Translations under genes and position numbers: made by a program
The notes under the pieces: model-generated
Told to the model about the DNA's origin: nothing
The model's input: only the letters and a program-made list of their open reading frames with translations
Database searches by the model: none
Assembly: GCA_016869025.1 (NCBI GenBank)
Contig: VGFA01000006.1
Span: 16,065-80,064, forward strand
Source: Armatimonadota bacterium
Lineage (GTDB): Bacteria; Sysuimicrobiota; Sysuimicrobiia; Sysuimicrobiales; Humicultoraceae
Direction: 5' to 3'
Length of the DNA: 64,000 nucleotides
Shown here: piece after piece, positions 48,646 to 63,111 of the stretch
How the letters are laid out: the number at the start of each line of letters is the position of its first letter
Position numbering within the stretch: position 1 is the first letter of the stretch

Positions 48646-49461
48646 ATGTTGCACAAGGTCGCTGGTATCTCGAGGAAGGGCCGGGACGAACTCGCGCTGG
48701 TGGCGGGTCGGGGGAGGAGATTGGTGTCCGTTTCGGAGGCCGCCAGCGCTCTCAGGGTGGACAGGCAGGCGGCAGCCCGGAAGTTGGCGCTATGGGCTGA
48801 GGAAGGTTGGCTCCGACGTGTGAGGCGCGGTCTCTACATCCCTGTTCCTGTGGAGGCTCAGGATCCCCGTTCCTGGTCCGAAGACCCGTTCGTCTTGGCA
48901 GATGCCGTCTGGAGTCCCTGCTATTTCACTGGCTTGACAGCCGCGAACCACTGGGGGCTTACGGAGCAGATCTTCCGAACCACCGTGCTCAAGACAGTCC
49001 GCCGGGTGCGCTCCTCCCGCGAGCGTTTCCTCGATCACGAGTACCTCGTCGCGCACATCCCCGAGCGCCTGATGGACTGGGGCCTCCGGCCCATCTGGCG
49101 AGAGGAGCGACGGGTGTGGATTGCCGACCCTGCTCGCACAGTCACAGAGATCCTCGACGCCCCCCTGCTTGGAGGCGGCATTCGTCAGGTCGCCGAGATC
49201 GTTGCCGCGTACCTGAACGAGCACGACTGGAAGACCTTGGTCGAGTACGGGGATCGTCTTGGGAACCGCGCCGTATTCAAGCGGCTCGGCCACCTGGTGG
49301 AGACGGCAGGCCTCGGGAAGCCCGGGTTAGTGGCGATGTGCCGGGACCGGATCTCTACGGGTGTATCTCTGCTCGATCCGAACGGCCCAGCGGGCGGCAA
49401 GCGAGTGGCAGAGTGGGGCATCCGGGCTAACGTCCAGGTCCCTCGGCACGGGGCTTCATGA
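48646..49461 (+). CDS. abiEi: AbiEi-family antitoxin/transcriptional regulator (type IV TA)
   Basis: N-terminal wHTH (VSVSEAASALRVDRQAAARKLALWAEEGWLRRVRRGLY) and C-terminal AbiEi domain (PARTVTEILDAPLLGGGIRQVAEIV). ATGA overlap with the toxin gene. Confidence 0.85.
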   Translation: MLHKVAGISRKGRDELALVAGRGRRLVSVSEAASALRVDRQAAARKLALWAEEGWLRRVRRGLYIPVPVEAQDPRSWSEDPFVLADAVWSPCYFTGLTAANHWGLTEQIFRTTVLKTVRRVRSSRERFLDHEYLVAHIPERLMDWGLRPIWREERRVWIADPARTVTEILDAPLLGGGIRQVAEIVAAYLNEHDWKTLVEYGDRLGNRAVFKRLGHLVETAGLGKPGLVAMCRDRISTGVSLLDPNGPAGGKRVAEWGIRANVQVPRHGAS

Positions 49462-50636
49462 TTCCCCCAGGTGAGATCCGCGCGCTGCGGGCCGAGTGGC
49501 GGCTCCGGGACGACATCATCGAGAAGGACTACGTCCTGGGCTGGCTGCTCGCCGGCATCGCAACGGATCCAGCGCTCTCGGCCACCTGGGTGTTCAAGGG
49601 CGGCACCTGCCTCCGGAAGTGTTACTACGAGACATTCCGGTTCTCCGAGGATCTCGACTTCACAATTGTCGGAGGTGGCCCGGAAGAGCCGAACGAGCTC
49701 CTCCTGGCGTTCAGGCGGATCGGCGAGTGGCTCTTAGACCGATCGGGCATTGAGCTCGTGCCTGACGAGCAGTCCTTCACCAGGCAGAGAAACCTCCGAG
49801 GGAACCCGACAACCCAAGGCCGGATCGCCTTCCGGGGGCCAATCCGATCACCCATGCCCCCGAAGGTCAAGCTTGATCTCACGAGCGACGAGGTCGTCGT
49901 GGAAGCACCGGTTCGTCGCCCCATATCACACCCCTACAGCGACGGCGCGCTCCCGGTGGTAGACGGCGTCCTCTGCTACTCGATCGTGGATCTCATGGCC
50001 GAGAAGATTAGGGCTCTCGCTGAGCGGTGCAGGCCGCGGGACCTCTACGATGTCGTCCACCTGTACAGGTATCCCGACCTCAGGGAGCGCGCGGCTGCTG
50101 TGTCGGCCGCGCTCAGCCGAAAGTGCACACATGTCGGGATCCCGGTGCCCACCGCTGAGACGATCCGGTCATCGCCGTACCGAGAAGAGGTCGAGATAGA
50201 GTGGCACAACATGCTGGCCCACCAACTGCCTCACCTGCCACCGTTCGCAGAGTTCTGGGCCGCCCTGGACGAGGTCTTCGCATGGGTGCGAGGTGAGTGG
50301 GCGGTCCCCACTCACCGCCGAGCCGAGATCGGCGATCTGCATGCCAGCTGGATGCCCCCGCGTGCGATGGCCTCGTGGCGGCGCGGTGCGCCACTCGAAC
50401 TGATCCGGTTCGCCGGCGCGAACCGCCTGAAAGTCGAGATCGACTACCGTGCCGAAGCGGGCCGGCAAGGCCCTCGCGTTGTCGAGCCGTACTCGCTCCG
50501 GATGACGAAGGACGGCAACCTCGTGCTCTTTGTTGTCAACGACCGGGGCCAGCTCAGGGGCTACCGGGTCGACAGGATCGCTGGCGCGCGCGTCACGGAG
50601 GCGCCGTTCCAGCCCCGGTACCTTGTCGAGTTCTGA
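49458..50636 (+). CDS. abiEii: AbiEii/AbiGii (DUF1814) nucleotidyltransferase toxin with C-terminal WYL-like domain
   Basis: IEKDYVLGWLL, FKGGTCLRKCY...RFSEDLDF (NTase motif) and KIRALAERCRPRDLYD. An extra ~90-aa tail reads LKVEIDYRAEAGRQGPRVVEPYSLRMTKDGNLVLFVVNDRGQLRGYRVDRIAGARVTEAPF (WYL pattern). Confidence 0.85.
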   Translation: MIPPGEIRALRAEWRLRDDIIEKDYVLGWLLAGIATDPALSATWVFKGGTCLRKCYYETFRFSEDLDFTIVGGGPEEPNELLLAFRRIGEWLLDRSGIELVPDEQSFTRQRNLRGNPTTQGRIAFRGPIRSPMPPKVKLDLTSDEVVVEAPVRRPISHPYSDGALPVVDGVLCYSIVDLMAEKIRALAERCRPRDLYDVVHLYRYPDLRERAAAVSAALSRKCTHVGIPVPTAETIRSSPYREEVEIEWHNMLAHQLPHLPPFAEFWAALDEVFAWVRGEWAVPTHRRAEIGDLHASWMPPRAMASWRRGAPLELIRFAGANRLKVEIDYRAEAGRQGPRVVEPYSLRMTKDGNLVLFVVNDRGQLRGYRVDRIAGARVTEAPFQPRYLVEF

Positions 50637-50725: not shown

Positions 50726-53557
50726 GTGGGCATGAACCCCGAACAGGAAGCGCGCCAGCGAATTGACGACCTGTTGACCCGGGCCGGCTGGGCCGTGCAG
50801 GATGCCGGCGCCGTCAACCTGTACGAGCGCCGCGGAGTCGCCGTGCGCGAGGTCGCCCTCAAGACCGGCCACGGCGAGGCCGACTACCTGCTGTACGTGG
50901 ACGGCAGGGCTGCCGGCGTAGTCGAGGCCAAACGAACGGGTTCTACTCTCACAGGTGTTGAGCCACAGTCCAAAAGATACAGCGAAGGGCTCCCAGACGA
51001 CCTGCCTGCCTGGCGGCGACCTCTCCCCTTCCTCTATGAGAGCACTGGGGTCGAGACCCGGTTCACCAGCGGCCTTGATCCCGACCCGCGCAGCCGCCAG
51101 GTGTTCGCGTTCCACCGGCCGGAGACCCTGGCCGAGTGGCTGGCCATCCCTGGGACGGTGGCCGAAGCGCGGCTCCGCGAGGAGTTGAAGGCGGCAGAGG
51201 AACGCGAGATCTACGTCGCGCTTCCCACACTGCGCCACGGTCTCAGGATGATGCCTCCGCTGAACCCGCGAGGGCTGTGGTCGGTACAGGCTCAGGCAAT
51301 CCAGAACCTGGAAGCGTCTTTGGCACGGGACCACCCCCGTTCCCTGGTTCAGATGGCCACGGGCAGCGGGAAGACGGTCATGGCCGCTCACCTGGTCTAC
51401 CGGCTCGTCAGGCACGCCGGCGCCGGGCGCGTCCTCTTCCTCGTGGACCGCAGCAACCTCGGCCGCCAGACTCTGCGCGAGTTCCAGGGCTTCGTCAGCC
51501 CCGACGACGGCAGGAAGTTCACCGAACTCTACAACGTGCAGCACCTCCAGTCCAACCGCATCGACCAGGTGAACCGCGTCTGCATCGCCACCATCCAGCG
51601 CATCTATTCGATGCTGAAGGGGGAGGAACTGGATCCGGAACTGGAAGAGCAGTCCGCCTTCGAGATGCTGCCGCTCCGAAAGGAACCTGCCCCCGTCGAG
51701 TACAATTTAGATATCCCCATCGAGACCTTCAACGTCATCATCACCGACGAGTGCCATCGTTCCATCTACAACCTCTGGCGGCAGGTGCTGGAGTACTTCG
51801 ACGCTTTCCTCATCGGCATGACGGCCACGCCATCGAAGCAGACCCTGGGCTTCTTCAACCAGAACCTGGTCATGGAGTACAGTCACGAGCAGGCCGTCGC
51901 CGACGGCGTGAACGTGGACTTCGACGTCTACCGCATACGCACGGAGATCACCGAACGCGGCTCCAAGGTTGAGGCCGGGTACTACGTAGACCGCCGCAAC
52001 CGCCAGACGCGCGCCGTGAGGTGGGAGCAGCTCGACGAGGACCTCGTGTACGCCCCCAATCAACTGGACCGGGACGTGGTGGCTCCCGACCAGATTCGCA
52101 CGGTCATCCGCGCCTTCCGTGATCGACTTTCTACTGAGATCTTTCCCGGACGTTCCGAAGTACCCAAGACGCTCATCTTCGCGAAGGACGACAGCCACGC
52201 CGATGACATCGTGCAGATCGTGCGGCAAGAGTTTGGGCGCGGCAACGAGTTCGCCCAGAAGATAACCTACAAGACGACCGGCGCGAAACCCGAGGACCTG
52301 CTGCAGGCCTTTCGCACTTCCTACTTCCCACGCATCGCCGTCACCGTGGACATGATCGCCACCGGCACGGACATCCGCCCCCTGGAGGTCGTCCTCTTCA
52401 TGCGGAACGTCCGCAGCCGCAACTTCTTCGAGCAGATGAAGGGCCGCGGTGTGCGGATCATCTCCTCCACCGAGTTCCAGTCCGTCACCCCCGACGCCGC
52501 CCACAAGACCCACTTCGTCATCGTAGACGCGGTGGGTGTGACAGAGCAGAACCTCTCCGACTCCTACTCCCTGGAGAAGCAGCCTACCATCCCCTTCGAG
52601 AAGCTGCTGGACGCGGTGGCCATGGGCAACCGGGAGCCGGAGGTCCTCTCCTCCCTGGCCAGCCGGCTGGCACGCCTGGACCGCCAGCTCACGGTTTCGG
52701 ATCGGCGCGCTCTCCAGGACGTGGCTCAGGGTCTGGCTCTCAAGGAGATGACTTCCGCCCTGCTCAAGGCTGCGGACCCGGACGCCGTGCTTGACGCCGC
52801 CCGCCAGGCGACGGGCCAGGACGAACCGCCGGAAGAAGCCGTTGCACGGGCGCGGAGGGACCTCGCGGAGGCGGCTGCCCGCCCACTCGCCGCCAACCCA
52901 GAACTGCGCCAGCGTCTCATCGACATTCGACGGTCGTACGAGCAGATGATCGACACCGTCAGCCAGGATCGTCTCGTGGAAGCCGGTTACTCCGCTGACG
53001 CCACCGACCGCGCCCGGGCCCTGGTGCGGTCCTTCCAGGAGTTCATCGCACAGCACCGCGATGAGATCACTGCCCTGCAGGTCCTCTACAGCCGGCCCTA
53101 TCGGCAGCGCCTGACCTACCGGGATATCAGGGGCCTTGCCGACGCCTTGCAGATGCCTCCCAGGGCGCTGACGCCTGACCGGCTGTGGGCTGCGTACCAG
53201 CAACTCGACCGATCCCGCGTGCGCGGATCCGGCCATCGGATGCTGGCTGACATTGTTTCTCTGGTGCGCTTCGCGATCGGCCAGGACGCGGAGTTGGTCC
53301 CATTTGCCGACCATGTGCGGGAGCGGTTCGATACCTGGCTGGCGGTCCAACAACTGATGGGTCGCGCCTCCACGGCCGAGCAGCGCCGCTGGCTGGAAGC
53401 CATCCGCGACCACATCGCGGGCAGCGTGAGCATGGGGCTGGAGGACTTTCAGTTGTCACCCTTTGACCAGCGGGGAGGCCTGGGCCGGGCCTACGCCCTC
53501 TTCGGGAAGGAGTTGGAGGCGCTGCTGGACGAGTTGAACCGGGAGTTGGTGGCATGA
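50726..53557 (+). CDS. hsdR: Type I restriction enzyme R subunit (EcoEI/type IB-like C-terminal domain)
   Basis: N-terminal PD-(D/E)xK nuclease (GEADYLLYVDGRAAGVVEAKR), helicase motif I MATGSGKT, motif II TDECHRS, and a C-terminal EcoEI-R-like tail. Confidence 0.9.
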   Translation: MGMNPEQEARQRIDDLLTRAGWAVQDAGAVNLYERRGVAVREVALKTGHGEADYLLYVDGRAAGVVEAKRTGSTLTGVEPQSKRYSEGLPDDLPAWRRPLPFLYESTGVETRFTSGLDPDPRSRQVFAFHRPETLAEWLAIPGTVAEARLREELKAAEEREIYVALPTLRHGLRMMPPLNPRGLWSVQAQAIQNLEASLARDHPRSLVQMATGSGKTVMAAHLVYRLVRHAGAGRVLFLVDRSNLGRQTLREFQGFVSPDDGRKFTELYNVQHLQSNRIDQVNRVCIATIQRIYSMLKGEELDPELEEQSAFEMLPLRKEPAPVEYNLDIPIETFNVIITDECHRSIYNLWRQVLEYFDAFLIGMTATPSKQTLGFFNQNLVMEYSHEQAVADGVNVDFDVYRIRTEITERGSKVEAGYYVDRRNRQTRAVRWEQLDEDLVYAPNQLDRDVVAPDQIRTVIRAFRDRLSTEIFPGRSEVPKTLIFAKDDSHADDIVQIVRQEFGRGNEFAQKITYKTTGAKPEDLLQAFRTSYFPRIAVTVDMIATGTDIRPLEVVLFMRNVRSRNFFEQMKGRGVRIISSTEFQSVTPDAAHKTHFVIVDAVGVTEQNLSDSYSLEKQPTIPFEKLLDAVAMGNREPEVLSSLASRLARLDRQLTVSDRRALQDVAQGLALKEMTSALLKAADPDAVLDAARQATGQDEPPEEAVARARRDLAEAAARPLAANPELRQRLIDIRRSYEQMIDTVSQDRLVEAGYSADATDRARALVRSFQEFIAQHRDEITALQVLYSRPYRQRLTYRDIRGLADALQMPPRALTPDRLWAAYQQLDRSRVRGSGHRMLADIVSLVRFAIGQDAELVPFADHVRERFDTWLAVQQLMGRASTAEQRRWLEAIRDHIAGSVSMGLEDFQLSPFDQRGGLGRAYALFGKELEALLDELNRELVA

Positions 53558-54213
53558 ATAGGCTGTCGTGCGCTTACTGCGGAAGCAGCGTGTCGAGAGC
53601 CGACAGAGAGCATGTTGTCCCCCGGTGCCTCTATCCCGACTCCAAGAGGAGTTCGAAGGTTCAGCGGCTGACCGTCCCTGCCTGCAGATCCTGCAACACC
53701 AGTTGGTCTGACGACGAAGCGCATTTCCGCAATATGATGCTGATCGCAGGCGAACCGAACTCGTCGGTACAGGAGCTCTGGCAAACCAAGACACGGCGGA
53801 GTTTCCGGGAAGTCGACGGGCCACGGCGGATGCGGGACCTTCTCTTCCAGCTGAAACCCGTTGAGACTGCAGACGGGCTGAGGCACATGGTCTATCCGGC
53901 CAGCGATGAGCGAGTCATGCGAATCATCCGGAAGATCGTGCGGGGCCTTTGTCATCATCATTGCGTAGTGTCCCCTGTCCAGGACCAGCAGGTGCGGGCA
54001 CGCGTTCTGGAATACCTAGCACCCCCAGAGCTCCTGGACGAGATGAGCTACCACCACTTGGAAAAGGATGTCTTCGAGTATCGGTATGCGGTCCTCGATG
54101 AGCCGGAGATCAACTCCGCATGGCTGCTGACGTTCTTCGAGCGCCGGAAGTTCATCGCCACTGTGACTCCCCTGCAACCGCTCAGTGAGGCGAACGGTGA
54201 AACAGGTAACTGA
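53554..54213 (+). CDS. HNH-type endonuclease-like protein inserted between hsdR and hsdS
   Basis: CAYCGSSVSRADREHVVPRCLY...VPACRSCNTSWSDDEAHF is a Cys4 plus H-N-H arrangement. ATGA overlap with the hsdR stop. Confidence 0.7.
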   Translation: MNRLSCAYCGSSVSRADREHVVPRCLYPDSKRSSKVQRLTVPACRSCNTSWSDDEAHFRNMMLIAGEPNSSVQELWQTKTRRSFREVDGPRRMRDLLFQLKPVETADGLRHMVYPASDERVMRIIRKIVRGLCHHHCVVSPVQDQQVRARVLEYLAPPELLDEMSYHHLEKDVFEYRYAVLDEPEINSAWLLTFFERRKFIATVTPLQPLSEANGETGN

Positions 54214-55777
54214 AGCAAGCGAGCGCACCGAACCTGTCCCCAGGGCACAACTCCTGCCTCCAGGGTGGGTGTGGACTACTTTGGGAGAGGTTTGCCTGGT
54301 CAACCCAAGTACCATCGCCGGGCCTCTGGGAGACGACGTGCCAGTCTCCTTCGTTCCGATGGCCGCCGTTGAGACCGCCACTGGGCGAGTAGATGCAAGC
54401 CGGGTGCGACCCTACAGCGAGGTCGCGAGGGGCTACACACGTTTCTCCGAAGGGGATGTTCTGTTCGCCAAGATCACTCCTTGCATGGAAAATGGCAAGA
54501 TTGCGGTGGCCCGGGGTCTGACGAACGGCGCAGGTTGCGGATCAACAGAGTTCCATGTGCTCCGACCGTTGGGCCACGTTTCCAGCGAACTGGTCATGTA
54601 CTACCTGCTCCAAGACAACTTCCGAAAGGAAGCGCGCAGGCACATGGCCGGGACGGCAGGGCAACTGCGGGTGCCGGCTTGGTTTGTTAGCGAAGCGCCC
54701 TTTCCACTCCCACCTCTCCAGGAGCAGCACCGCATCGTCGCGGAGATCGACAAGCACCTCACCCGCCTGGATGCCGCCGTCGCCTCTCTCCAGCGAGCCC
54801 GGGCCAACCTGAAGCGCTACCGCGCCAGCGTGCTCAAGGCGGCGTGTGAGGGACACCTGGTGCCCACCGAGGCCGAGTTAGCCCGTCACGAGGGTCGGGG
54901 CTACGAGCCTGCCTCGGTGCTGCTGGAGCGCATCCTAGAGGAGCGCCGCGCCCGGTGGGTGGCTCATGGGAAGCGCCGTGGCAAGTACCGGGAATCCCAA
55001 CCGCTGGACACTTCCAATCTACCAGCGCTTCCTGAGGGCTGGGTGTGGGCCACGGTGGAACAGATTGGCTCTGTGGGTAGCGGGCACACGCCAAAGGGTG
55101 TTGCCGGATACATAACACCCTCTGGAGAGATACCCTGGTTCAGGGTTGGAGACATGAACTTGCCCGGCAATGAGCGGTTCATGAGGAATGGTACCGCTTT
55201 CGTCTCTTCAACAGATGCCGGGTTGCTGGGGCTTCGGGCATTTCCACCAGGGACTATCGTCTTCCCGAAGCGAGGCGGTGCAATCGTGACTAACAAGAAG
55301 CGCCAACTCGCACTTCCTAGCGCCCTTGATTTGAACACGATGGGAATTGTGCCTAGCCCTCTCGTCGCAGCCTACGTCTGGTGGTGGTTTCAGACAGTGC
55401 CTCTTGTAGCACTGCATGATGGTTCAAATGTGCCTCAGATCAACCATGACGACATTGCACCGTTGCTAGTGCCACTTCCGCCGCTCTCGGAGCAGCGCCG
55501 AATAGTCGCCGAGGTGGAGCGCCTCCTGGCCGTGATCCAGGCGGCGGCAGAGATGCTGGGGGCTAACCTGCAGCGCGCGGAGCGGCTGCGTCAGGTCGTC
55601 CTCCGACGCGCCCTTGAGGGGAAGCTCGTTCCCCAAGACCCCACCGACGTGCCGGCCTCCGTGCTGCTGGAGCGCATCCGCGCGGAAGAGGAACATGCGG
55701 GGAGGAACACCGAAAAGGCGAGACGAAAAGTCAGCCGCCGACAGAAGGCTGAGTTAGAAGGCCCAGCGGGGGCATGA
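54185..55777 (+). CDS. hsdS: Type I restriction-modification specificity subunit
   Basis: Two target-recognition halves, each starting LP(P/E)GW(V)W..LGEV/VEQI and each ending in a conserved helix (LPPLQEQHRIVAEIDKHL and LPPLSEQRRIVAEVERLL). The start is uncertain because of a 29-nt overlap with the HNH ORF. Confidence 0.9.
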   Translation: MRRTVKQVTEASERTEPVPRAQLLPPGWVWTTLGEVCLVNPSTIAGPLGDDVPVSFVPMAAVETATGRVDASRVRPYSEVARGYTRFSEGDVLFAKITPCMENGKIAVARGLTNGAGCGSTEFHVLRPLGHVSSELVMYYLLQDNFRKEARRHMAGTAGQLRVPAWFVSEAPFPLPPLQEQHRIVAEIDKHLTRLDAAVASLQRARANLKRYRASVLKAACEGHLVPTEAELARHEGRGYEPASVLLERILEERRARWVAHGKRRGKYRESQPLDTSNLPALPEGWVWATVEQIGSVGSGHTPKGVAGYITPSGEIPWFRVGDMNLPGNERFMRNGTAFVSSTDAGLLGLRAFPPGTIVFPKRGGAIVTNKKRQLALPSALDLNTMGIVPSPLVAAYVWWWFQTVPLVALHDGSNVPQINHDDIAPLLVPLPPLSEQRRIVAEVERLLAVIQAAAEMLGANLQRAERLRQVVLRRALEGKLVPQDPTDVPASVLLERIRAEEEHAGRNTEKARRKVSRRQKAELEGPAGA

Positions 55778-56553
55778 CCCATCGAGCGACAAAGCGCAGT
55801 CGCGGCCGACCAAATGCCGTCGAGGTACTCGTGGCGAAGGTCGAGCAGCAATTCGACCCACTCGTGCTGCCCGCCGCTCACGGTCACGCTGGGACGCAGG
55901 GGGCCCAGGAGCGCCTAACTGCAGCCCTGGAGAGCGTCAATAACGCCCTGCTGACCATGAGCCTCTCGCGGGCTGCCAACCGAGCTGTGCAGAAGAAGGA
56001 TCTTCGCGGGCGCCTGTCCGAGACTCAGCTCGACATTCTGCGGGCAGCCATCGCGTTTGCTGGTGCGGGCCTGGACGCCGCCCTGAAGAAGCTGATCAAG
56101 GATACAGTTCGGGACATCGCTCTCCGCATTCCCTCGGCACGGCGGAAGTTCCTGGACTTCATCGATCGGCACCTCGCCGCATCCGACCAACCCGTTGATC
56201 GGCGCCGGCTAGCAGAGATCCTTGTGGATGGCCGTGGCAGCCAAGCAGCCCTGTTGGAAAGCTACGAGCGGGAGCTCACCGGCGACAGCCTTCAGTCAGT
56301 CGATCAGGTCAACGTCGTCTGTGGAGCCCTGGGCATTGACACCCGCACGATCCGGGAGCGTCTGAAGCCCGGCGCCACGCTCGACCAGATGTTTAGGGCG
56401 AGAAACGACATCGTTCATCAGCTTGATCTAACAGACCGCGGCCGCAAGGCGCGAACGTTCACGGAAGTTCGCGAGTTCGCAATGGAGGCCCTCGCTGTCA
56501 CTCAGGAGATCATCAATGCAGTCGCCACGACGCTCGAGGAGAGGGTCCTCTAA
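55774..56553 (+). CDS. Hypothetical all-helical protein with HEPN-like Rx4H motif (RiboL-PSP/MAE-type HEPN candidate)
   Basis: 259-aa ORF with an ATGA overlap with the hsdS stop. FRARNDIVHQ (R210-H215, nt 56401-56418) fits the HEPN Rx4-6H signature near the C-terminus of a helical protein. The assignment rests on the motif only. Confidence 0.5.
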   Translation: MTHRATKRSRGRPNAVEVLVAKVEQQFDPLVLPAAHGHAGTQGAQERLTAALESVNNALLTMSLSRAANRAVQKKDLRGRLSETQLDILRAAIAFAGAGLDAALKKLIKDTVRDIALRIPSARRKFLDFIDRHLAASDQPVDRRRLAEILVDGRGSQAALLESYERELTGDSLQSVDQVNVVCGALGIDTRTIRERLKPGATLDQMFRARNDIVHQLDLTDRGRKARTFTEVREFAMEALAVTQEIINAVATTLEERVL

Positions 56554-56602
56554 GACGCGGGTTAGCCGCAGCCGTTGGAGGGACAAAGAGGGGTCGTGAC
56601 TC

Positions 56603-59251
56603 ATGCCTGAGCTCGAACTCAACACGCAGGATCTCCCAACGCACCTTACTCGCGTAGCCGCGCGCCTTCGACTGGTCGGTCCAGATGCCTCTGGGGACAC
56701 ATTCCTCCTGACGTCGTACCTTTTCGAAGCGTCGCTGAAGACCATCGCGATTGCCCTCTGGTCTGGCCTGCGCGGGAGTTCTGCCGAGAACGCGTACGCC
56801 GTCGCATACAGGCTCGTGCGGGCAGACGGTCTTGGCGAGTGGGAAGACTCGATCTACCAAATGAGTTCGCAGCCACTTGCGGGCTACCTGTCCCCGGTCT
56901 TCCAACCAACGATCAACTGGCTAACACAGAAACGCAAACCACCAGCGGACGATTGGTTTCTTGCCGCGATTGGTGCCTCGGACCGGATCATCTCCTTCTT
57001 GGGGTTGGAACCGGATAGCGACGTCAGCCGGTATCGCACCATACGCCACCTCTTGAAGTCATTGGTACTGATTCGGAACAAGACCAAGGCCCACGGAGCG
57101 GTTGGCCCTGAGTTCTTCCAGATGGCGAACCCGCACTACCTTACCGCGGTTTCTGCTATCGCAGTACGCTGCCCCCTGTTTAGGGCCCGCTGGATGCACC
57201 TGTCTATCCGGGTGTCGAAGAACACAGTCCGCGGGGTTGATTTGGTCGGGCCAGAACCCAGGCACATTCGAGACGCTGAATGCGAGGAGTTTTCGCCCAC
57301 GGTCCCAGGCGTCCACGTAGCGCTGGCAAGAGGCATTCAGCCCTTCTATGTAGGCGAATTCCTCAGAACAACGGTGGAGTGCAAGGCGTTCCTGCTCCCG
57401 AACGGCGGTTTCACTACTGCAAATGGCGCCGAGTTCATCGACTTCGCAAATGGGGAGACGGAAAGGCTTGACCTGCCTGCCTACGCGTTACCGCCTGCGC
57501 CGCTACCCCCAAGCGAGACAGAGGGTCTCCCAGACCTAGATATCCAGAGCAATGTGTTCGGGAATCTGCCACCGCGACCGCATGGGTATGTGGAGCGGCC
57601 GCAGTTGCAGGGCGATCTTCTCACACGCCTGCTCGACAGGAATCATCCGATCATCACCCTCCATGGGCGCGGAGGCATAGGGAAGACGAGCCTCGCATTG
57701 TGGGCCGCCCACGAGTTAGCTTCTCGTGCTGAGCCACCCTTCAGTTTCATCGTGTGGTTCAGTGCACGCGATGTCGACTTACGCCCGACCGGACCAGCGC
57801 CTGTGCGAACGGCCGTGGTCGATCTCAAGTCTGTCTCAAGGGTCTATGGAGCGATGTTTGCTACCAAACCCTCTGAGGATGCTTTCGCTCGGATGCTTCA
57901 GGCGCCGCAGCCCGATGGGACCGGACGGCTGCTCATCTTCGACAACTTCGAGACCTTCGCGGATTCCCGTCAACTCCACAGGTTTCTTGACACCCATACC
58001 CACCTGCCGAACAAGGTGCTGATGACTAGCCGGGAGCGGGCGTTCAAGGCCGACTATCCGATTGAAGTGCGTGGGATGGAACCGGCAGAGGCCAGGAGTT
58101 TGCTCGCGTCAGTCGGGAGAGAGTTGGGGATCGAGGGTCTGCTGAATGATGATGCCGTCGAGTCCATCTACAGGTACACAGATGGACATCCGTATGTCAT
58201 GCGGCTCGTCCTCGGAGAGATGGCCAAGGAACGCCGCTATGTACCTCCCAAGGATCTCCTGCCCAGAAGAATCGACATTGTGAATGCAGTGTTCGAGAGG
58301 TCATTCAACAAGCTGTCCCAGCATGGCAAGTGGGTGTACCTTCTGACCGCAAATTGGAGAACTGCCATCGCTGAGCTTGCTCTCGTTGTAATCTGCGCAG
58401 AGCGCGATGTCGACGCGGAGGCTGGTGCCGAAGAATGCGTGCGTCTCTCGCTTCTCACCGCCGAACAGACCCCGGCTGGGAGTTACTACTACTGGGCGCC
58501 TGAACTTGCACGCGTATTCGGACGGAAGAAGCTTGATAGTGACCCCGATCGCCTAGCCATCCAACAGGCCCTCGCAGACCTTCGGCGCTTCTGCGTGCTG
58601 AAGCCGGGACAGGTCGCCACTACCTCACACTCAGACGTTGTGAACCGCTTCCTCGAATCGGCTCTGGAGGATACCAGCTCCACCGACGCGCAGGAAATCG
58701 ATCGCCTGAACGGCATTCTCGAAAGGATTGCCGAGTTGTATCCACCGGCATGGGGACAAGTCGCCGCGTTCCGCAGGCACTTCAGACTGCCCGGCCAGGA
58801 CATCGAGTACGCCCTTCGTCGTTGGGTCGAAGAACAGCCGTTCGACAAGACCGCCTGGCTCCAGCGCGCCGAGTACGCACGGGAGGTCAGCGACCAAGAA
58901 ACCCAAATCTCCTCCCTCGTGAGCGCGGTTGACGCTGACCCGCGAGACATCTCACTCCTGCGTGATGCGGCCCTCGCTCTATGTCAGTTCATCGACGCCC
59001 GCAAGGCTGCGATCCCAAGGACGCGACGCGGGGTGTACCTGGCAGGGGTCCGAGACCATATGGAGAGGTCAGCCGGCGATCTTGACGCGACAGCCCTTAG
59101 CAGGCTTGCCTGGCTCTTTCTCCTCGAGGACAATCGCGAAAAGGCTCTCTACTACGCAAAGCTCGGACTCGACAAAGAGCCTGGTAACGAACACTGTCGA
59201 CGAATCGTGCAACGTCTCGAGCCGCAGGCGGGCCGTCCAACTCGGCGCTGA
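56603..59251 (+). CDS. STAND NTPase (NB-ARC-like) with N-terminal HEPN-like domain and C-terminal helical/TPR-like region
   Basis: Walker A HGRGGIGKTS (nt 57662-57691), Walker B LLIFDNFE (57929-57952), KVLMTSRE, and GHPYVMRLV (GxP motif). The N-terminal region has LIRNKTKAHG (R158-H164, nt 57074-57094). The last ~340 aa are helical repeats. Confidence 0.8.
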   Translation: MPELELNTQDLPTHLTRVAARLRLVGPDASGDTFLLTSYLFEASLKTIAIALWSGLRGSSAENAYAVAYRLVRADGLGEWEDSIYQMSSQPLAGYLSPVFQPTINWLTQKRKPPADDWFLAAIGASDRIISFLGLEPDSDVSRYRTIRHLLKSLVLIRNKTKAHGAVGPEFFQMANPHYLTAVSAIAVRCPLFRARWMHLSIRVSKNTVRGVDLVGPEPRHIRDAECEEFSPTVPGVHVALARGIQPFYVGEFLRTTVECKAFLLPNGGFTTANGAEFIDFANGETERLDLPAYALPPAPLPPSETEGLPDLDIQSNVFGNLPPRPHGYVERPQLQGDLLTRLLDRNHPIITLHGRGGIGKTSLALWAAHELASRAEPPFSFIVWFSARDVDLRPTGPAPVRTAVVDLKSVSRVYGAMFATKPSEDAFARMLQAPQPDGTGRLLIFDNFETFADSRQLHRFLDTHTHLPNKVLMTSRERAFKADYPIEVRGMEPAEARSLLASVGRELGIEGLLNDDAVESIYRYTDGHPYVMRLVLGEMAKERRYVPPKDLLPRRIDIVNAVFERSFNKLSQHGKWVYLLTANWRTAIAELALVVICAERDVDAEAGAEECVRLSLLTAEQTPAGSYYYWAPELARVFGRKKLDSDPDRLAIQQALADLRRFCVLKPGQVATTSHSDVVNRFLESALEDTSSTDAQEIDRLNGILERIAELYPPAWGQVAAFRRHFRLPGQDIEYALRRWVEEQPFDKTAWLQRAEYAREVSDQETQISSLVSAVDADPRDISLLRDAALALCQFIDARKAAIPRTRRGVYLAGVRDHMERSAGDLDATALSRLAWLFLLEDNREKALYYAKLGLDKEPGNEHCRRIVQRLEPQAGRPTRR

Positions 59252-59308
59252 ACCAGAAGGCCGCTTAGAGCGGCCGCAGGTTACCGCGGACCGTTCGGAG
59301 GTGCGGGC

Positions 59309-60799
59309 ATGAGCACGGCCTCGGCTATCGGCCAGAAGTTGTGGAACTACTGCAACGTCCTCCGGGACGCCGGCCTCTCATACGGCGACTACCTGGAGCA
59401 ACTTACCTACCTGATCTTCCTCAAGATGATGCATGAGCGGGCGCAGCCGCCGTACTCGCTGTTGCCGGACTTCCAGCCCCCGCCCATCCCTGAAGGGTAC
59501 GACTGGCCGAGCCTCCTGGCCCGGGATGGCGACGAGCTGGAGACGCACTACCGGCATCTGCTGGAACGGCTGGGACGGGAGCAGGGTACCCTAGGGGTCA
59601 TCTTCCGCAAGGCCCAGAACAAGATACAAGATCCGGCGATGTTGCGCCGGCTCATCGTGGACCTCATTGATCGGGAGAACTGGTCAGCGCTCAGCGCCGA
59701 CGTGAAGGGCGACGCCTACGAGGCGCTACTGGAGCGCAACGCCCAGGACGTGAAGACGGGCGCGGGACAGTACTTCACGCCCAGGCCGCTCATCCAGGCC
59801 ATCGTGGACGTCATACGTCCTGCGCCGAGCATGACTATCTGCGACCCTGCCTGTGGCACCGGTGGGTTCCTTTTGGCCGCCCATGATTACATCGTCAGGC
59901 ACTACCCGCACATGGACCGCGGCCAGCGTGAAGAACTGAAATACCGCGCGCTATATGGCTGGGACATCGTGGAGGGCGTGGCGCGTCTGTGCGTCATGAA
60001 CCTGTACCTCCACGGCGTCGGCGGCGATGAGACGCTGATCAAGGTGGACGACAGCCTCCGGGCTCATCCGGGCACGGACTTCGATATGGTCCTGACGAAT
60101 CCGCCGTTCGGGAAGAAGTCCAGCCTGACTTTCGTGAACGGGGAGGGCGAGCAGGCCAGAGACACCCTGGTCGTCATCCGGGACGACTTCTCGGCGTCCA
60201 CGAGCAACAAGCAGCTCAACTTCCTCCAGCATGTGAGAAGCATTCTCAAGATCCACGGCCGGGCGGCCGTGGTCGTCCCAGACAATGTGCTCTTCGAGGG
60301 CGGCGCCGGGGAGACCATCCGCCGCCGGCTGCTCCACGAGTGCGACGTCCACACGCTGCTCCGCCTGCCCACGGGCATCTTCTATGCTCAGGGCGTCAAG
60401 GCCAACGTCCTCTTCTTCGACCGCAAGCCGGCCAGCCAAACCCCCTGGACCAAGACCCTCTGGATATATGACCTTCGTACCAACAAGCACTTCACCCTGA
60501 AGACCAATCCACTGACACGGGCTGATCTCGACGACTTCGTGGCCTGCTGCAATCCCGAGAACCGCCACGCCCGGAAGGAGACCGGGCGTTTCCGCCCATT
60601 CCCGTACGAAGAACTGGTGAAGCGCGACAAGGCGAATCTTGACATCTTCTGGCTCCGGGACGAGAGCGTGGAGGACTCCGCCAGCCTGCCCCCTCCCGAG
60701 GTGCTGGCTGAAGAGATAGTAGAGGATCTGCGCGCGGCCCTGGAGCAGTTTGAGGAAATCGGCGCAGACCTCGAGCCGAAGCCCTACCCCTCCGCTTGA
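59309..60799 (+). CDS. hsdM: Type I restriction-modification N6-adenine DNA methyltransferase subunit
   Basis: HsdM N-terminal domain (LWNYCNVLRDAGLSYGDYLEQLTYLIFLKM), AdoMet motif DPACGTGGFL, catalytic NPPFG. Confidence 0.95.
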   Translation: MSTASAIGQKLWNYCNVLRDAGLSYGDYLEQLTYLIFLKMMHERAQPPYSLLPDFQPPPIPEGYDWPSLLARDGDELETHYRHLLERLGREQGTLGVIFRKAQNKIQDPAMLRRLIVDLIDRENWSALSADVKGDAYEALLERNAQDVKTGAGQYFTPRPLIQAIVDVIRPAPSMTICDPACGTGGFLLAAHDYIVRHYPHMDRGQREELKYRALYGWDIVEGVARLCVMNLYLHGVGGDETLIKVDDSLRAHPGTDFDMVLTNPPFGKKSSLTFVNGEGEQARDTLVVIRDDFSASTSNKQLNFLQHVRSILKIHGRAAVVVPDNVLFEGGAGETIRRRLLHECDVHTLLRLPTGIFYAQGVKANVLFFDRKPASQTPWTKTLWIYDLRTNKHFTLKTNPLTRADLDDFVACCNPENRHARKETGRFRPFPYEELVKRDKANLDIFWLRDESVEDSASLPPPEVLAEEIVEDLRAALEQFEEIGADLEPKPYPSA

Positions 60800-60807
60800 T
60801 ACAAACC

Positions 60808-63111
60808 CTACCTCGGCGCCAGCACCAGCCTTCCGACCGCGGCGTCTTCGATCTTCTGCCGCGAAAACAGCAGCGGCACGTACTCTCCCCTCGCCCAAAG
60901 CGCCGCGAAATCACGGTAGTGCCGGTGGAAGGGCAGGCCGCTCTGCCCCGTTGTGTGGATCACCAGCGACCGATCCCAGTCCGCCGGGTCGAGGATCTGC
61001 CGGTACGAGGCCACCACAACCTGCCGGAACGGCTCTTCCGGGTTGAAGGCGCTGTTGTTGACAGTGAAGGCGTCGCCGCCTACCTCTGGGGGCGTCGTGT
61101 TGAAGATCCAGGCCAGGGACCTGATGCGCCCGATGGGATGGACGAAGGTGGGTTGGTGCAGCCTTCCCCACCGCCACCCCTCCCGCTTGGGTCCGAGCTG
61201 CCCTTCCAGGGTCCGCACCGCATCGCGCAGCGCGGTCTCCACCAGCCGATCGCGGCTGCCCCGCCACCAACCAGAGGAAGGGTCGCGCAGCAGCGCGAGC
61301 ACCGTCTGCACCGCCCCCTCGTACTGGCGCAGGTAGCGACCGAAGACCGCCTCGTCGAGTGGCGTCCGGAACACCTCCTTGACCAGGGCATCCAGGAGCG
61401 CCTCGTACACGGCGGCAGGCCGGCTGGAAGCCGAGAGCACGCCGTCCCACTGGAGCAGTTCGGCAAAGACCGGCTGGAGCGCCGGGTCCAGGATCCTCAC
61501 CGGCCGCAGCGCCTCGACCATGGCCCTGCCCGGGAGCGAGGTCACGTCGCTGTGGATGCGCTTGAAGGTCTCGACCGACTGGGTGCCCTCAGAGAGGAGC
61601 TCATTGATGCGCCGCGCGCGGTACCCCACGTCCCAGTCGCGGCCCAGGAAGTGCGGATAGCCCGGCGGCGCGATGCGGTTGTTGGCGGTGAGCAGGAACC
61701 CATCGCGCCCATGGGCGCTGGGGAGCGCCTCGAACGGCAGCCATCCGGTCCACTCGTGCTCGCCGGTCCACCCGGGCACCGGCACCGCGCCCGTTCCCTT
61801 GGCCCGTACAGGGATGCGCCCCGGCATCTGGTAGCCGATCTCGCCATTGCGGTGGGCGAAGACGAAGTTCTGGGACGGCGCGTCCCACGCCCTCAGCGCC
61901 TGCCGGAACTCATCCCAGGTGGACGCGCGGTTGACCCCGTCCACCGACTCGATGATGGTGCTCGACTCCAGCGCCGTCCACCGCAGCGCCAGAGGGGCGT
62001 GCAGCCCACGCACCACATTGTTCAGGATCGGGCCGTGGCGCGTGACGCGCACGATCTCGACGGCCGGCTCGTTCCGGCCCTTGACCTTGATCGTCTCGCG
62101 GACTACGGTCGCCGGGATCCACTGCCCCTTGTGCAGATACCGCGCCGGATCCTCGGGATGGAACCGCTCAATGTACAGGTCCTGCACGTCGGGGTTGGCG
62201 TTGGTCACGCCCCACGCGATGTCCCGGTTGTGCCCGACGATGACGCCGGGCACGCCTGGGAATGTGGCCCCGACGACGTCGTAGGGCCCGCCGTTCAGGT
62301 GCATCAGGTACCAGATAGACGGCATCTGGGATTCCAGGTGCGGATCATTGGCCAGCAACGGGCTGCCGGTCTCCGCGCGGTTTCCGGCGACGACCCAGTT
62401 GTTGCTGCCTATGCCGGGCAGGCTCCTCAGGCCCATGCCCGGAAGGTACCACCCGCCGGTGATGACCGGCGCGTCGGACGGGTACCCAGGCAGCAGCCGC
62501 TCCAGCGCACCGTCGCCGAACCGTTCGAGGAGTTGCTGGCGCAGTATCTCCACCCGCCAATCGCCGCCCAACACCCACGCCATCAGCTTGCCGTAAGCCA
62601 GGCTGTCGGCCGGGGTCCAGGGCTCAGGAGCGAAGCCCAGCAGCGTGAACTCGATGGGAAGCCGGCCGCGCGCGCCTGCGATGAAGGCGTTCACCCCGGC
62701 GGCGTAGGCGTCAAGGTTCTGTTTCGTCTGCGGGCTGACGGCGCCCAGGTGCGCCTCGGCGACGCGCCGCAGGCCGATCGTGCGCAGGAACCGGTCGGTC
62801 GGCAGCGCCGCCTCACCGAAGATCTCGGCCAGACGGCCGGAGGCGGTACGGCGGTTGAGCTCCATCTGCCAGAGACGATCCTGCGCGTGGACGAAGCCCT
62901 GCGCGAGAAACAGCGCGCGTGAGGACCGCGCGAAAAGGTGGGGGATTCCCCACCGGTCGCGCACCACCTCCACGGGATCGCCCAAACCGGAGACGCGTAC
63001 CGCCCCAGAGATCTGAGGGAACGGGCGGCGCGCCAGATAGACGCCGGCTCCACCGGCGACGGCGGCAACGGTCAGGATCACTACCAGCAGGACGAGCAGC
63101 AGGCGGCGCAT
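60808..63111 (-). CDS. Penicillin acylase (S45 Ntn-hydrolase) family protein
   Basis: Signal anchor, RDRWGIPHLFA...AQGFVHAQDRLWQME, and the autoprocessing site GSNNWVVAG. Confidence 0.9.
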   Translation of the reverse strand: MRRLLLVLLVVILTVAAVAGGAGVYLARRPFPQISGAVRVSGLGDPVEVVRDRWGIPHLFARSSRALFLAQGFVHAQDRLWQMELNRRTASGRLAEIFGEAALPTDRFLRTIGLRRVAEAHLGAVSPQTKQNLDAYAAGVNAFIAGARGRLPIEFTLLGFAPEPWTPADSLAYGKLMAWVLGGDWRVEILRQQLLERFGDGALERLLPGYPSDAPVITGGWYLPGMGLRSLPGIGSNNWVVAGNRAETGSPLLANDPHLESQMPSIWYLMHLNGGPYDVVGATFPGVPGVIVGHNRDIAWGVTNANPDVQDLYIERFHPEDPARYLHKGQWIPATVVRETIKVKGRNEPAVEIVRVTRHGPILNNVVRGLHAPLALRWTALESSTIIESVDGVNRASTWDEFRQALRAWDAPSQNFVFAHRNGEIGYQMPGRIPVRAKGTGAVPVPGWTGEHEWTGWLPFEALPSAHGRDGFLLTANNRIAPPGYPHFLGRDWDVGYRARRINELLSEGTQSVETFKRIHSDVTSLPGRAMVEALRPVRILDPALQPVFAELLQWDGVLSASSRPAAVYEALLDALVKEVFRTPLDEAVFGRYLRQYEGAVQTVLALLRDPSSGWWRGSRDRLVETALRDAVRTLEGQLGPKREGWRWGRLHQPTFVHPIGRIRSLAWIFNTTPPEVGGDAFTVNNSAFNPEEPFRQVVVASYRQILDPADWDRSLVIHTTGQSGLPFHRHYRDFAALWARGEYVPLLFSRQKIEDAAVGRLVLAPR

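Follow-up and report, generated by a model that had tools for sequence, protein, structure and literature searches.

The stretch of DNA analysed here (hereafter the window) consists of 64,000 nucleotides (nt) of contig VGFA01000006.1 from an Armatimonadota bacterium and contains a type I restriction operon that carries additional genes. One of these, an open reading frame (ORF) of 259 amino acids (aa) situated between hsdS and a gene for a STAND NTPase, appears to encode a stand-alone HEPN protein of the RiboL-PSP type and is the subject of this analysis. A preliminary description of the window had proposed that this ORF starts with an ATG in an ATGA overlap with the hsdS stop codon. The ORF list contains it with the proposed start, length and limits (Table 1), and in the sequence gggggcATGAccc the ATG of the HEPN gene (55774-55776) overlaps the TGA of hsdS (55775-55777); the 530-aa ORF upstream was recognized as a type I specificity subunit by both Pfam and PADLOC. 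The start of the HEPN gene is called differently by different sources, with a 240-aa product from GTG 55831 given by JGI and the 259-aa product given by Logan. The peptide upstream of V20, which is rich in K and R and continues into the sequence GRPNAVE, is kept in 18 relatives of unrelated genomic context, and ATG 55774 is the sole start codon available upstream of the GRPNAVE peptide. Because this peptide is conserved and only ATG 55774 can encode it, the start that overlaps hsdS is the better supported. The basic tail has the K/R..GRP character of an AT-hook and is thus a putative nucleic-acid-binding element; it is missing in distant relatives, whose starts fall approximately 40 residues later, and residues 1-10 have low confidence in the predicted structure. 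Lake-water metagenomes, at least nine of them, contain an identical locus with the ORF intact. The ORF is a true gene.

The 259-aa protein matched the Pfam profile HEPN_RiboL-PSP (PF18735) with an E value of 8e-7 and a score of 29.6 bits, a narrow margin over the gathering cut-off of 28.4. The alignment extends over residues 82-250 of the protein and positions 23-189 of the 191 in the profile. The same profile was matched by 36 of 42 relatives, among which no other Pfam family was found. A first search yielded 73 homologues, and an exhaustive profile search extended the family to 1019 clusters at 50% identity, 816 of them with E values up to 1e-10. The best 150 family representatives are proteins of 170-324 aa, and none of them carries a fused domain.

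The sequence FRARNDIVHQ, to which the preliminary description had drawn attention as a HEPN-like motif, is present, with R210 to H215 at the nucleotides proposed. Taken alone, the RNDIVH motif does not exceed chance expectation: the protein is rich in Arg, and when its sequence was shuffled 20,000 times, 46% of the shuffles contained Rx4H and 6.4% contained R[NDH]x3H. It is raised above chance by the profile match together with the conservation seen among relatives. In an alignment of 42 sequences, down to 28% identity, residues D101, K105, S172, Q174, R210, H215 and D218 are invariant and N211 is at least 90% conserved; when 140 sequences were aligned, D101, S172, Q174, H215 and D218 were still invariant, and R210, N211 and K105 were at least 90% conserved. 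A strict extended motif, R[NDHST]x3Hx[LIVM]D, was found in 194 of 203 members. As defined in PMC3710099, HEPN domains have an Rx4-6H motif at the end of helix 3 with a polar residue after the R and an Ex3[KR] motif located upstream, in helix 2; the segment between helices 2 and 3 takes up variable inserts. The 259-aa protein has RNx3H, with a polar residue following the R, and an acidic-x3-basic motif upstream of it; the Dx3K and RNx3H residues are conserved and, as far as their sequence indicates, of the catalytic type. A profile search of the PDB ranked the catalytic RNxxxHxLD segments of two Csm6 HEPN ribonucleases (RNases) first and third, in register with the 259-aa family, with E values of 0.2 and 0.57 that are not significant.

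The AlphaFold2 (AF2) model of the protein is all-helical and of high predicted accuracy, with a predicted local distance difference test (pLDDT) score of 93.8 and a predicted template modelling (pTM) score of 0.89. Helix positions were taken from the secondary-structure string of the model, not from coordinates. The Dx3K motif falls in helix 83-118, which is followed by five short helices; RNDIVH closes helix 202-216, and after it come a hairpin loop and a final helix, 229-255. This helix order agrees with the published description of HEPN domains (PMC3710099), and the predicted topology therefore supports the assignment. By the definition given there the motif lies at the end of helix 3, the penultimate helix, rather than in the helix 4 position named in the preliminary description. 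The suggestion of a HEPN protein, and of the RiboL-PSP type in particular, was otherwise borne out by the PF18735 score above the cut-off, the matches of 36 of the 42 relatives and the conserved motif. HEPN membership is thus well supported by profile, motifs and predicted topology; three-dimensional comparison gave no confirmation.

Table 1. Features of the operon and of the HEPN and STAND genes. Positions are those of the window; in the last two rows they are those of the loci of distant relatives, each given with its handle.
Feature	Position	Strand	Basis
AbiEi gene	48646-49461	+	Pfam AbiEi_4
AbiEii-WYL gene	49458-50636	+	Pfam AbiEii, WYL
hsdR, type I restriction subunit	50726-53557	+	Pfam HSDR_N, ResIII, Helicase_C, EcoEI_R_C
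219-aa HNH-like gene at the hsdR-hsdS junction	53554-54213	+	CxxC...EHVVP...CxxCN pattern; weak PADLOC PtuB match
hsdS, 530 aa (alternative start 54197)	54185-55777	+	Pfam Methylase_S; PADLOC Specificity_I, E 2.5e-120
ATGA, start of HEPN gene overlapping hsdS stop	55774-55777	+	Sequence; N-terminal peptide kept in relatives
Stand-alone HEPN gene of RiboL-PSP type, 259 aa	55774-56553	+	ORF list; Pfam PF18735; homologues; AF2 model
Basic tail KRSRGRP (AT-hook-like)	55792-55812	+	Present in 18 close relatives
D101-x3-K105, counterpart of HEPN Ex3[KR] with D replacing E	56074-56088	+	Conservation; motif definition in PMC3710099
R210-N-D-I-V-H215, Rx4H motif	56401-56418	+	Conservation in relatives
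882-aa STAND NTPase gene	56603-59251	+	Pfam NB-ARC/NACHT
R158-N-K-T-K-A-H164, Rx5H motif of the STAND N-domain	57074-57094	+	R, N, T, H and G at least 98% conserved in 115 homologues
hsdM, type I methyltransferase, at the 3' end of the operon	59309-60799	+	Pfam N6_Mtase, HsdM_N; PADLOC MTase_I, E 1e-190
YDY-repeat protein abutting the HEPN gene	L009 10672-11019; L032 830-1177; L036 10666-11028; L047 10552-10899; L048 9447-9809		
4-fold beta-flower protein abutting the HEPN gene	L035 9209-9568; L049 10554-10913		Pfam

Within the operon, hsdR, an HNH-like gene, hsdS, the HEPN gene, the STAND gene and hsdM follow each other in this order, all on the + strand. Adjacent genes overlap at the first three junctions (by 4, 17-29 and 4 nt) and are separated at the last two by gaps of 49 and 57 nt; no terminator-like sites were found on the + strand between hsdS and hsdM. 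An AbiEi/AbiEii-WYL pair is located directly 5' of hsdR. The G+C content of the HNH-like gene (0.586), the STAND gene (0.596) and the HEPN gene (0.627) is lower than the 0.672 measured elsewhere (window positions 1-45000), which is consistent with horizontal acquisition of these cargo genes. A search of the flanks for direct or inverted repeats, as expected at an insertion, was negative; the only repeat seen was an internal one of 40 nt in hsdS, typical of the two conserved HsdS regions.

The operon was compared with 80 metagenome loci (L067-L146) whose HsdM proteins are 65-73% identical to that of the window. The order hsdR-hsdS-hsdM is kept in these sister operons, and the spacing between hsdS and hsdM varies widely: of 64 loci in which both genes were mapped, 27 have a spacing of at most 300 nt and 30 have more than 700 nt with separate ORFs. 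These gaps are perhaps somewhat overestimated, given the variable ends of HsdS, and the large ones are real as judged by the ORFs called in them. Cargo was also present between hsdR and hsdS in 7 of 46 loci. Many kinds of cargo occur in the sister operons, for the most part genes of defence or toxin type; among them are AbiEi/AbiEii, Peptidase_M78 with HTH_3, DUF6119, DUF6883, AAA_16 with TPR, Nmad3, a UvrD helicase, a dCTP-deaminase-like gene, a prokaryotic STING with TIR, DUF4411 and an IS200 transposase. Neither the HEPN gene nor the STAND gene occurs in any of the 80 sister loci. Relatives of the AbiEi/AbiEii pair (39-48% identity) fill the hsdS-hsdM slot in L096 (5183-7412) and in L138 (7705-9953); as this pair is 5' of hsdR in the window, the same cargo uses different positions around such operons. 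Thus, in this type I lineage the hsdS-hsdM junction (55777-59309 in the window) is a variable slot in which different genomes carry different genes for defence or toxins. The most fitting view of the HEPN and STAND genes is that each arrived in this slot as cargo of its own, independently of the other, and this view agrees with the G+C content of the cargo (0.59-0.63, against 0.67 for the rest of the window).

We then asked what accompanies relatives of the HEPN gene elsewhere. Neighbourhoods were examined at 53 loci, 47 from species-representative genomes and 6 from metagenomes, with the closest relatives at 86, 74, 72, 70, 60 and 51% identity. When all neighbours were clustered against each other, no family was common to more than 5 of the 53 loci, and no partner gene is conserved beside the HEPN relatives. 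Restriction and defence genes were nevertheless encountered above our expectation, namely SLFN_AlbA_2 (4 neighbours), ResIII/HSDR_N, Mrr, BrxL, PIN, type ISP and Hma components. Distant relatives are found directly 3' of a type I hsdR gene (L041 and L048), of a type ISP enzyme (L036) and of an Hma-like operon (L044). At approximately 47 of the 53 loci, including those of the relatives at 86, 74, 72, 70 and 60% identity, restriction genes are absent nearby. Searches of plasmid and phage collections with tblastn gave no match for either the HEPN gene or the STAND gene, and IMG/VR gave a single distant locus with the HEPN family as query and no locus with the STAND N-domain. This near-absence marks both genes as chromosomal and not typical phage or plasmid genes.

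The STAND protein, whose gene follows the HEPN gene, has a helical N-domain of approximately 195 residues, a beta-rich subdomain, an NB-ARC/NACHT NTPase and a TPR-like C-terminus, and belongs to a large family; its full-length homologues, at about 50% identity, number more than 1900. The preliminary description had called it a HEPN-STAND protein. On the one hand, the motifs of the N-domain are conserved and well placed: E42x3K46 and RNxTxxHG show no or almost no variation among 25 to 115 homologues, and in the model of this domain (pLDDT 91.5) the Rx5H motif closes helix 147-162, ahead of a loop and helix 169-189. When the N-domain was compared with the 259-aa family by hhalign, the two were aligned around the RN motif with P values of 3e-4 to 1e-3 and a probability of 21-41%. 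On the other hand, the N-domain had no match in Pfam (with E values up to 10, and also for 25 homologues), in the PDB profile search, in Foldseek or in PADLOC. The label is therefore plausible but unproven for a domain recognized by its sequence motifs. The protein as a whole looks like an uncatalogued Avs-like single-gene system. It shares with Avs proteins an effector-like N-domain, a STAND NTPase, a TPR-like C-terminus and the single-gene module, and HEPN-STAND-TPR fusions are on record (PMC3710099). It differs from them in that no PADLOC Avs model matched it and in that the HEPN nature of its N-domain is indicated by motifs only.

The proximity of the two genes had led to the proposal, in the preliminary description, that the free HEPN protein and the N-domain of the STAND protein form a heterodimeric nuclease or an inhibitor/partner pair. 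In favour of such a pairing, the genes are on the same strand and 49 nt apart, the Ex3K and RNxTxxHG motifs of the STAND N-domain are invariant, and the two families align around the RN motif in hhalign with the P values given above. There is also a second example of a family member placed after a HEPN-NTPase fusion: in L044 (3411-11985), the genes for a HEPN_Swt1-DUF499 ATPase and a DUF1156 protein (PADLOC HmaB/HmaC) immediately precede the member and a PD-(D/E)XK nuclease gene follows it, which makes L044 a second, independent instance of a free HEPN gene adjoining such a fusion. The comparative support for the proposal was lost, however, when the relatives of each gene were inspected. No relative of the STAND protein or of the HsdS of the window was found beside the HEPN relatives (up to 86% identity) at any of the 53 loci, and no HEPN gene was found beside STAND relatives at five independent loci (82, 79, 70, 68 and 53% identity), all of which look like single-gene modules. 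Moreover, no fusion with a STAND protein was present among the top 150 representatives of the HEPN family, the G+C contents of the two genes are unequal, and it is unproven that the STAND N-domain is a HEPN domain in the first place. We thus judge the pairing to be very improbable, with the note that a local, recently evolved interaction would be compatible with the absent co-occurrence. The two independent adjacencies, in the window and in L044, together with the weak in-register similarity of the profiles, also suggest a broader idea, that free HEPN proteins of RiboL-PSP type act in trans with NTPase-tethered HEPN domains, either by forming heterodimeric sites or by capping them until the sensor fires. 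Co-occurrence was absent at all other loci examined, and this idea is to be treated as highly improbable.

The explanation that best accommodates these observations, to which we assign a probability of about 0.6, is that the 259-aa protein is an autonomous, latent, stand-alone HEPN RNase, carried as independent cargo of the type I operon and providing an abortive-infection-type second line behind restriction. The protein would be made at a low level together with HsdS and would dimerise, so that a composite, metal-independent RNase site could form that leaves 2',3'-cyclic phosphate ends, as expected from other HEPN enzymes. The dimer would stay latent until it receives a cue from infection, upon which RNA would be cleaved, translation would stop and growth would be arrested. 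In carrying out these steps the protein would presumably act alone and not via the STAND protein. The steps are modelled on the HEPN enzymes RNase L, PrrC, RloC and Csm6, as summarised in PMC3710099.

Several observations weigh against this explanation. The neighbours of the HEPN relatives are heterogeneous, include housekeeping genes and are for the most part not defence genes, so that a defence role rests on a minority of loci and on analogy. PADLOC gave no match for the 259-aa protein and only noise for 42 relatives, and NCBIfam likewise had no match for the protein. When the AF2 model was compared by Foldseek with PDB and BFVD, no match with E <0.3 was obtained to any fold, HEPN included. 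A free RNase would be expected to need restraint, and no regulator or antitoxin with this role is evident in the window. The literature searched contained no experimental data on any family member, and a search for RNA evidence returned only DNA runs (lake and groundwater metagenomes), with no RNA-seq run containing the locus.

A closer dependence on the restriction enzyme is suggested by PrrC and EcoprrI, the established precedent for a HEPN RNase within a type I locus (PMC3710099). By analogy, the 259-aa protein could be kept inactive through binding to HsdS, HsdM or HsdR and be freed when a phage inhibits restriction. Like the anticodon nucleases PrrC and RloC, the protein is encoded inside a type I hsd operon, here between hsdS and hsdM, and the logic of a second line would be the same. 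The start/stop overlap with hsdS favours stoichiometric co-synthesis, and restriction-type operons repeatedly have a member of the family at their ends (L041, L048, L036 and L044), with HsdM beside the member in L049. Nevertheless, we consider this arrangement unlikely. The 259-aa protein does not have the N-terminal ABC-ATPase, the regulatory domain of PrrC and RloC; its relatives are mostly located outside restriction loci, as described above; and the unrelated cargo found in the same slot of sister operons argues for a landing site and not for a co-adapted complex. It is also conceivable that the protein is not a catalyst or has no part in defence; it might, for instance, regulate the operon by binding RNA or nucleotides, or its gene might be a passenger in decay. 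Certain HEPN families do bind a substrate rather than catalyse (PMC3710099), no defence model matched the protein, and the AT-hook-like tail could bind nucleic acid. This explanation appears improbable in view of the signature of a catalytic family, in which the H is invariant and the R and the polar residue next to it are at least 90% conserved over some 140-200 diverse members; of the clear protein-level conservation of the family; and of the ORF being intact and identical in at least nine metagenome samples. A HEPN-MNT pair with AbiEii was also considered and rejected; AbiEii is 5 kb upstream and is already paired with AbiEi, and no MNT gene adjoins the HEPN gene, the neighbours of which are hsdS and the STAND gene, or occurs among the neighbours of its relatives.

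The protein belongs to a family that is already in the catalogues, and in 2013 comparative genomics had linked this family, in a general way, to restriction operons. With the RiboL-PSP-HEPN family (PF18735; Anantharaman et al. 2013, PMC3710099) the protein shares the profile match, an Rx4H motif with N after the R, the acidic-x3-basic motif, the all-helical fold of the model and the bacterial origin. It is unlike that family as described in lacking a fusion to the L-PSP endoribonuclease that gave the family its name, the reported operon with ParB is absent, and the 25 most common families of neighbours do not include ParB. The present subfamily consists of stand-alone proteins of approximately 230-260 aa, and its closest members have the basic GRP tail. 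The RiboL-PSP-HEPN family has been described as a distant relative of AbiF and AbiD, which are single-gene abortive-infection proteins (PMC3710099). PD-T4-5, a distant AbiF/D relative, is an experimentally validated single gene (PMC9519451), and PF18735 is entered in a review table for the HEPN domains of PD-T4-2, PD-T4-5, PD-T7-3 and ApeA (PMC10952713). AbiD, AbiF and PD-T4-5 are the nearest functional analogues, being like the 259-aa protein single-gene HEPN proteins without a fixed partner. In contrast to them, the 259-aa protein matched neither Pfam Abi_2 nor any PADLOC model for these systems.

If the preferred explanation is correct, the locus adds one more predicted RNase-type effector to those stacked inside restriction-modification operons. 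Two leads follow from the analysis. One is a compact, partner-less HEPN family of approximately 1000 clusters that is missing from current defence catalogues; the other is the cargo slot of one widespread type I lineage, which could be mined for candidate defence genes. Should the protein prove to be a phage-triggered RNase, it would constitute a new single-gene abortive-infection system; should it depend on the restriction enzyme or on the STAND protein, the locus would illustrate how the layers of defence are connected.

Two arrangements were seen among the relatives that differ from that of the window. At seven loci, all of distant relatives, the HEPN gene adjoins a gene for a small protein (approximately 115-120 aa), and the stop codon of one often overlaps the start codon of the other; the small protein is a YDY-repeat protein in five of them and a Pfam 4-fold beta-flower protein in the other two (Table 1). 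This small protein may be a neutralising partner in that distant branch. No YDY-repeat or beta-flower gene is present beside the HEPN gene in the window. In L051 (10001-11565), a relative at 72% identity is followed by a divergent second paralogue (34% identity), which appears to be split over two overlapping ORFs and may be a frameshifted tandem copy.

The remaining observations concern the other genes of the operon. The HNH-like ORF of 219 aa overlaps both the stop of hsdR and the start of hsdS, and has the pattern CAYCG...EHVVPRC...CRSCN and a PADLOC match to PtuB (HNH) with an E value of 2.8e-5. It is a third cargo gene, in the second cargo position at the hsdR-hsdS junction, and no relative of it was found in the 80 sister operons. 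At the other end, the operon ends with hsdM. An ORF of 708 aa on the + strand (60796-62922) was considered as a further member and rejected, being the shadow of a minus-strand gene and having no family match; the true next gene encodes a 767-aa penicillin amidase on the minus strand (60808-63111). Finally, a perfect 7-bp GC-rich hairpin, GGCCGCT-TAG-AGCGGCC, is located at 59259-59275, 8 nt past the stop codon of the STAND gene. It has no T-run and is followed on its 3' side by GGAGG, the ribosome-binding site of hsdM. This hairpin, placed at the boundary of the cargo, possibly acts as an attenuator or stabilises the RNA.

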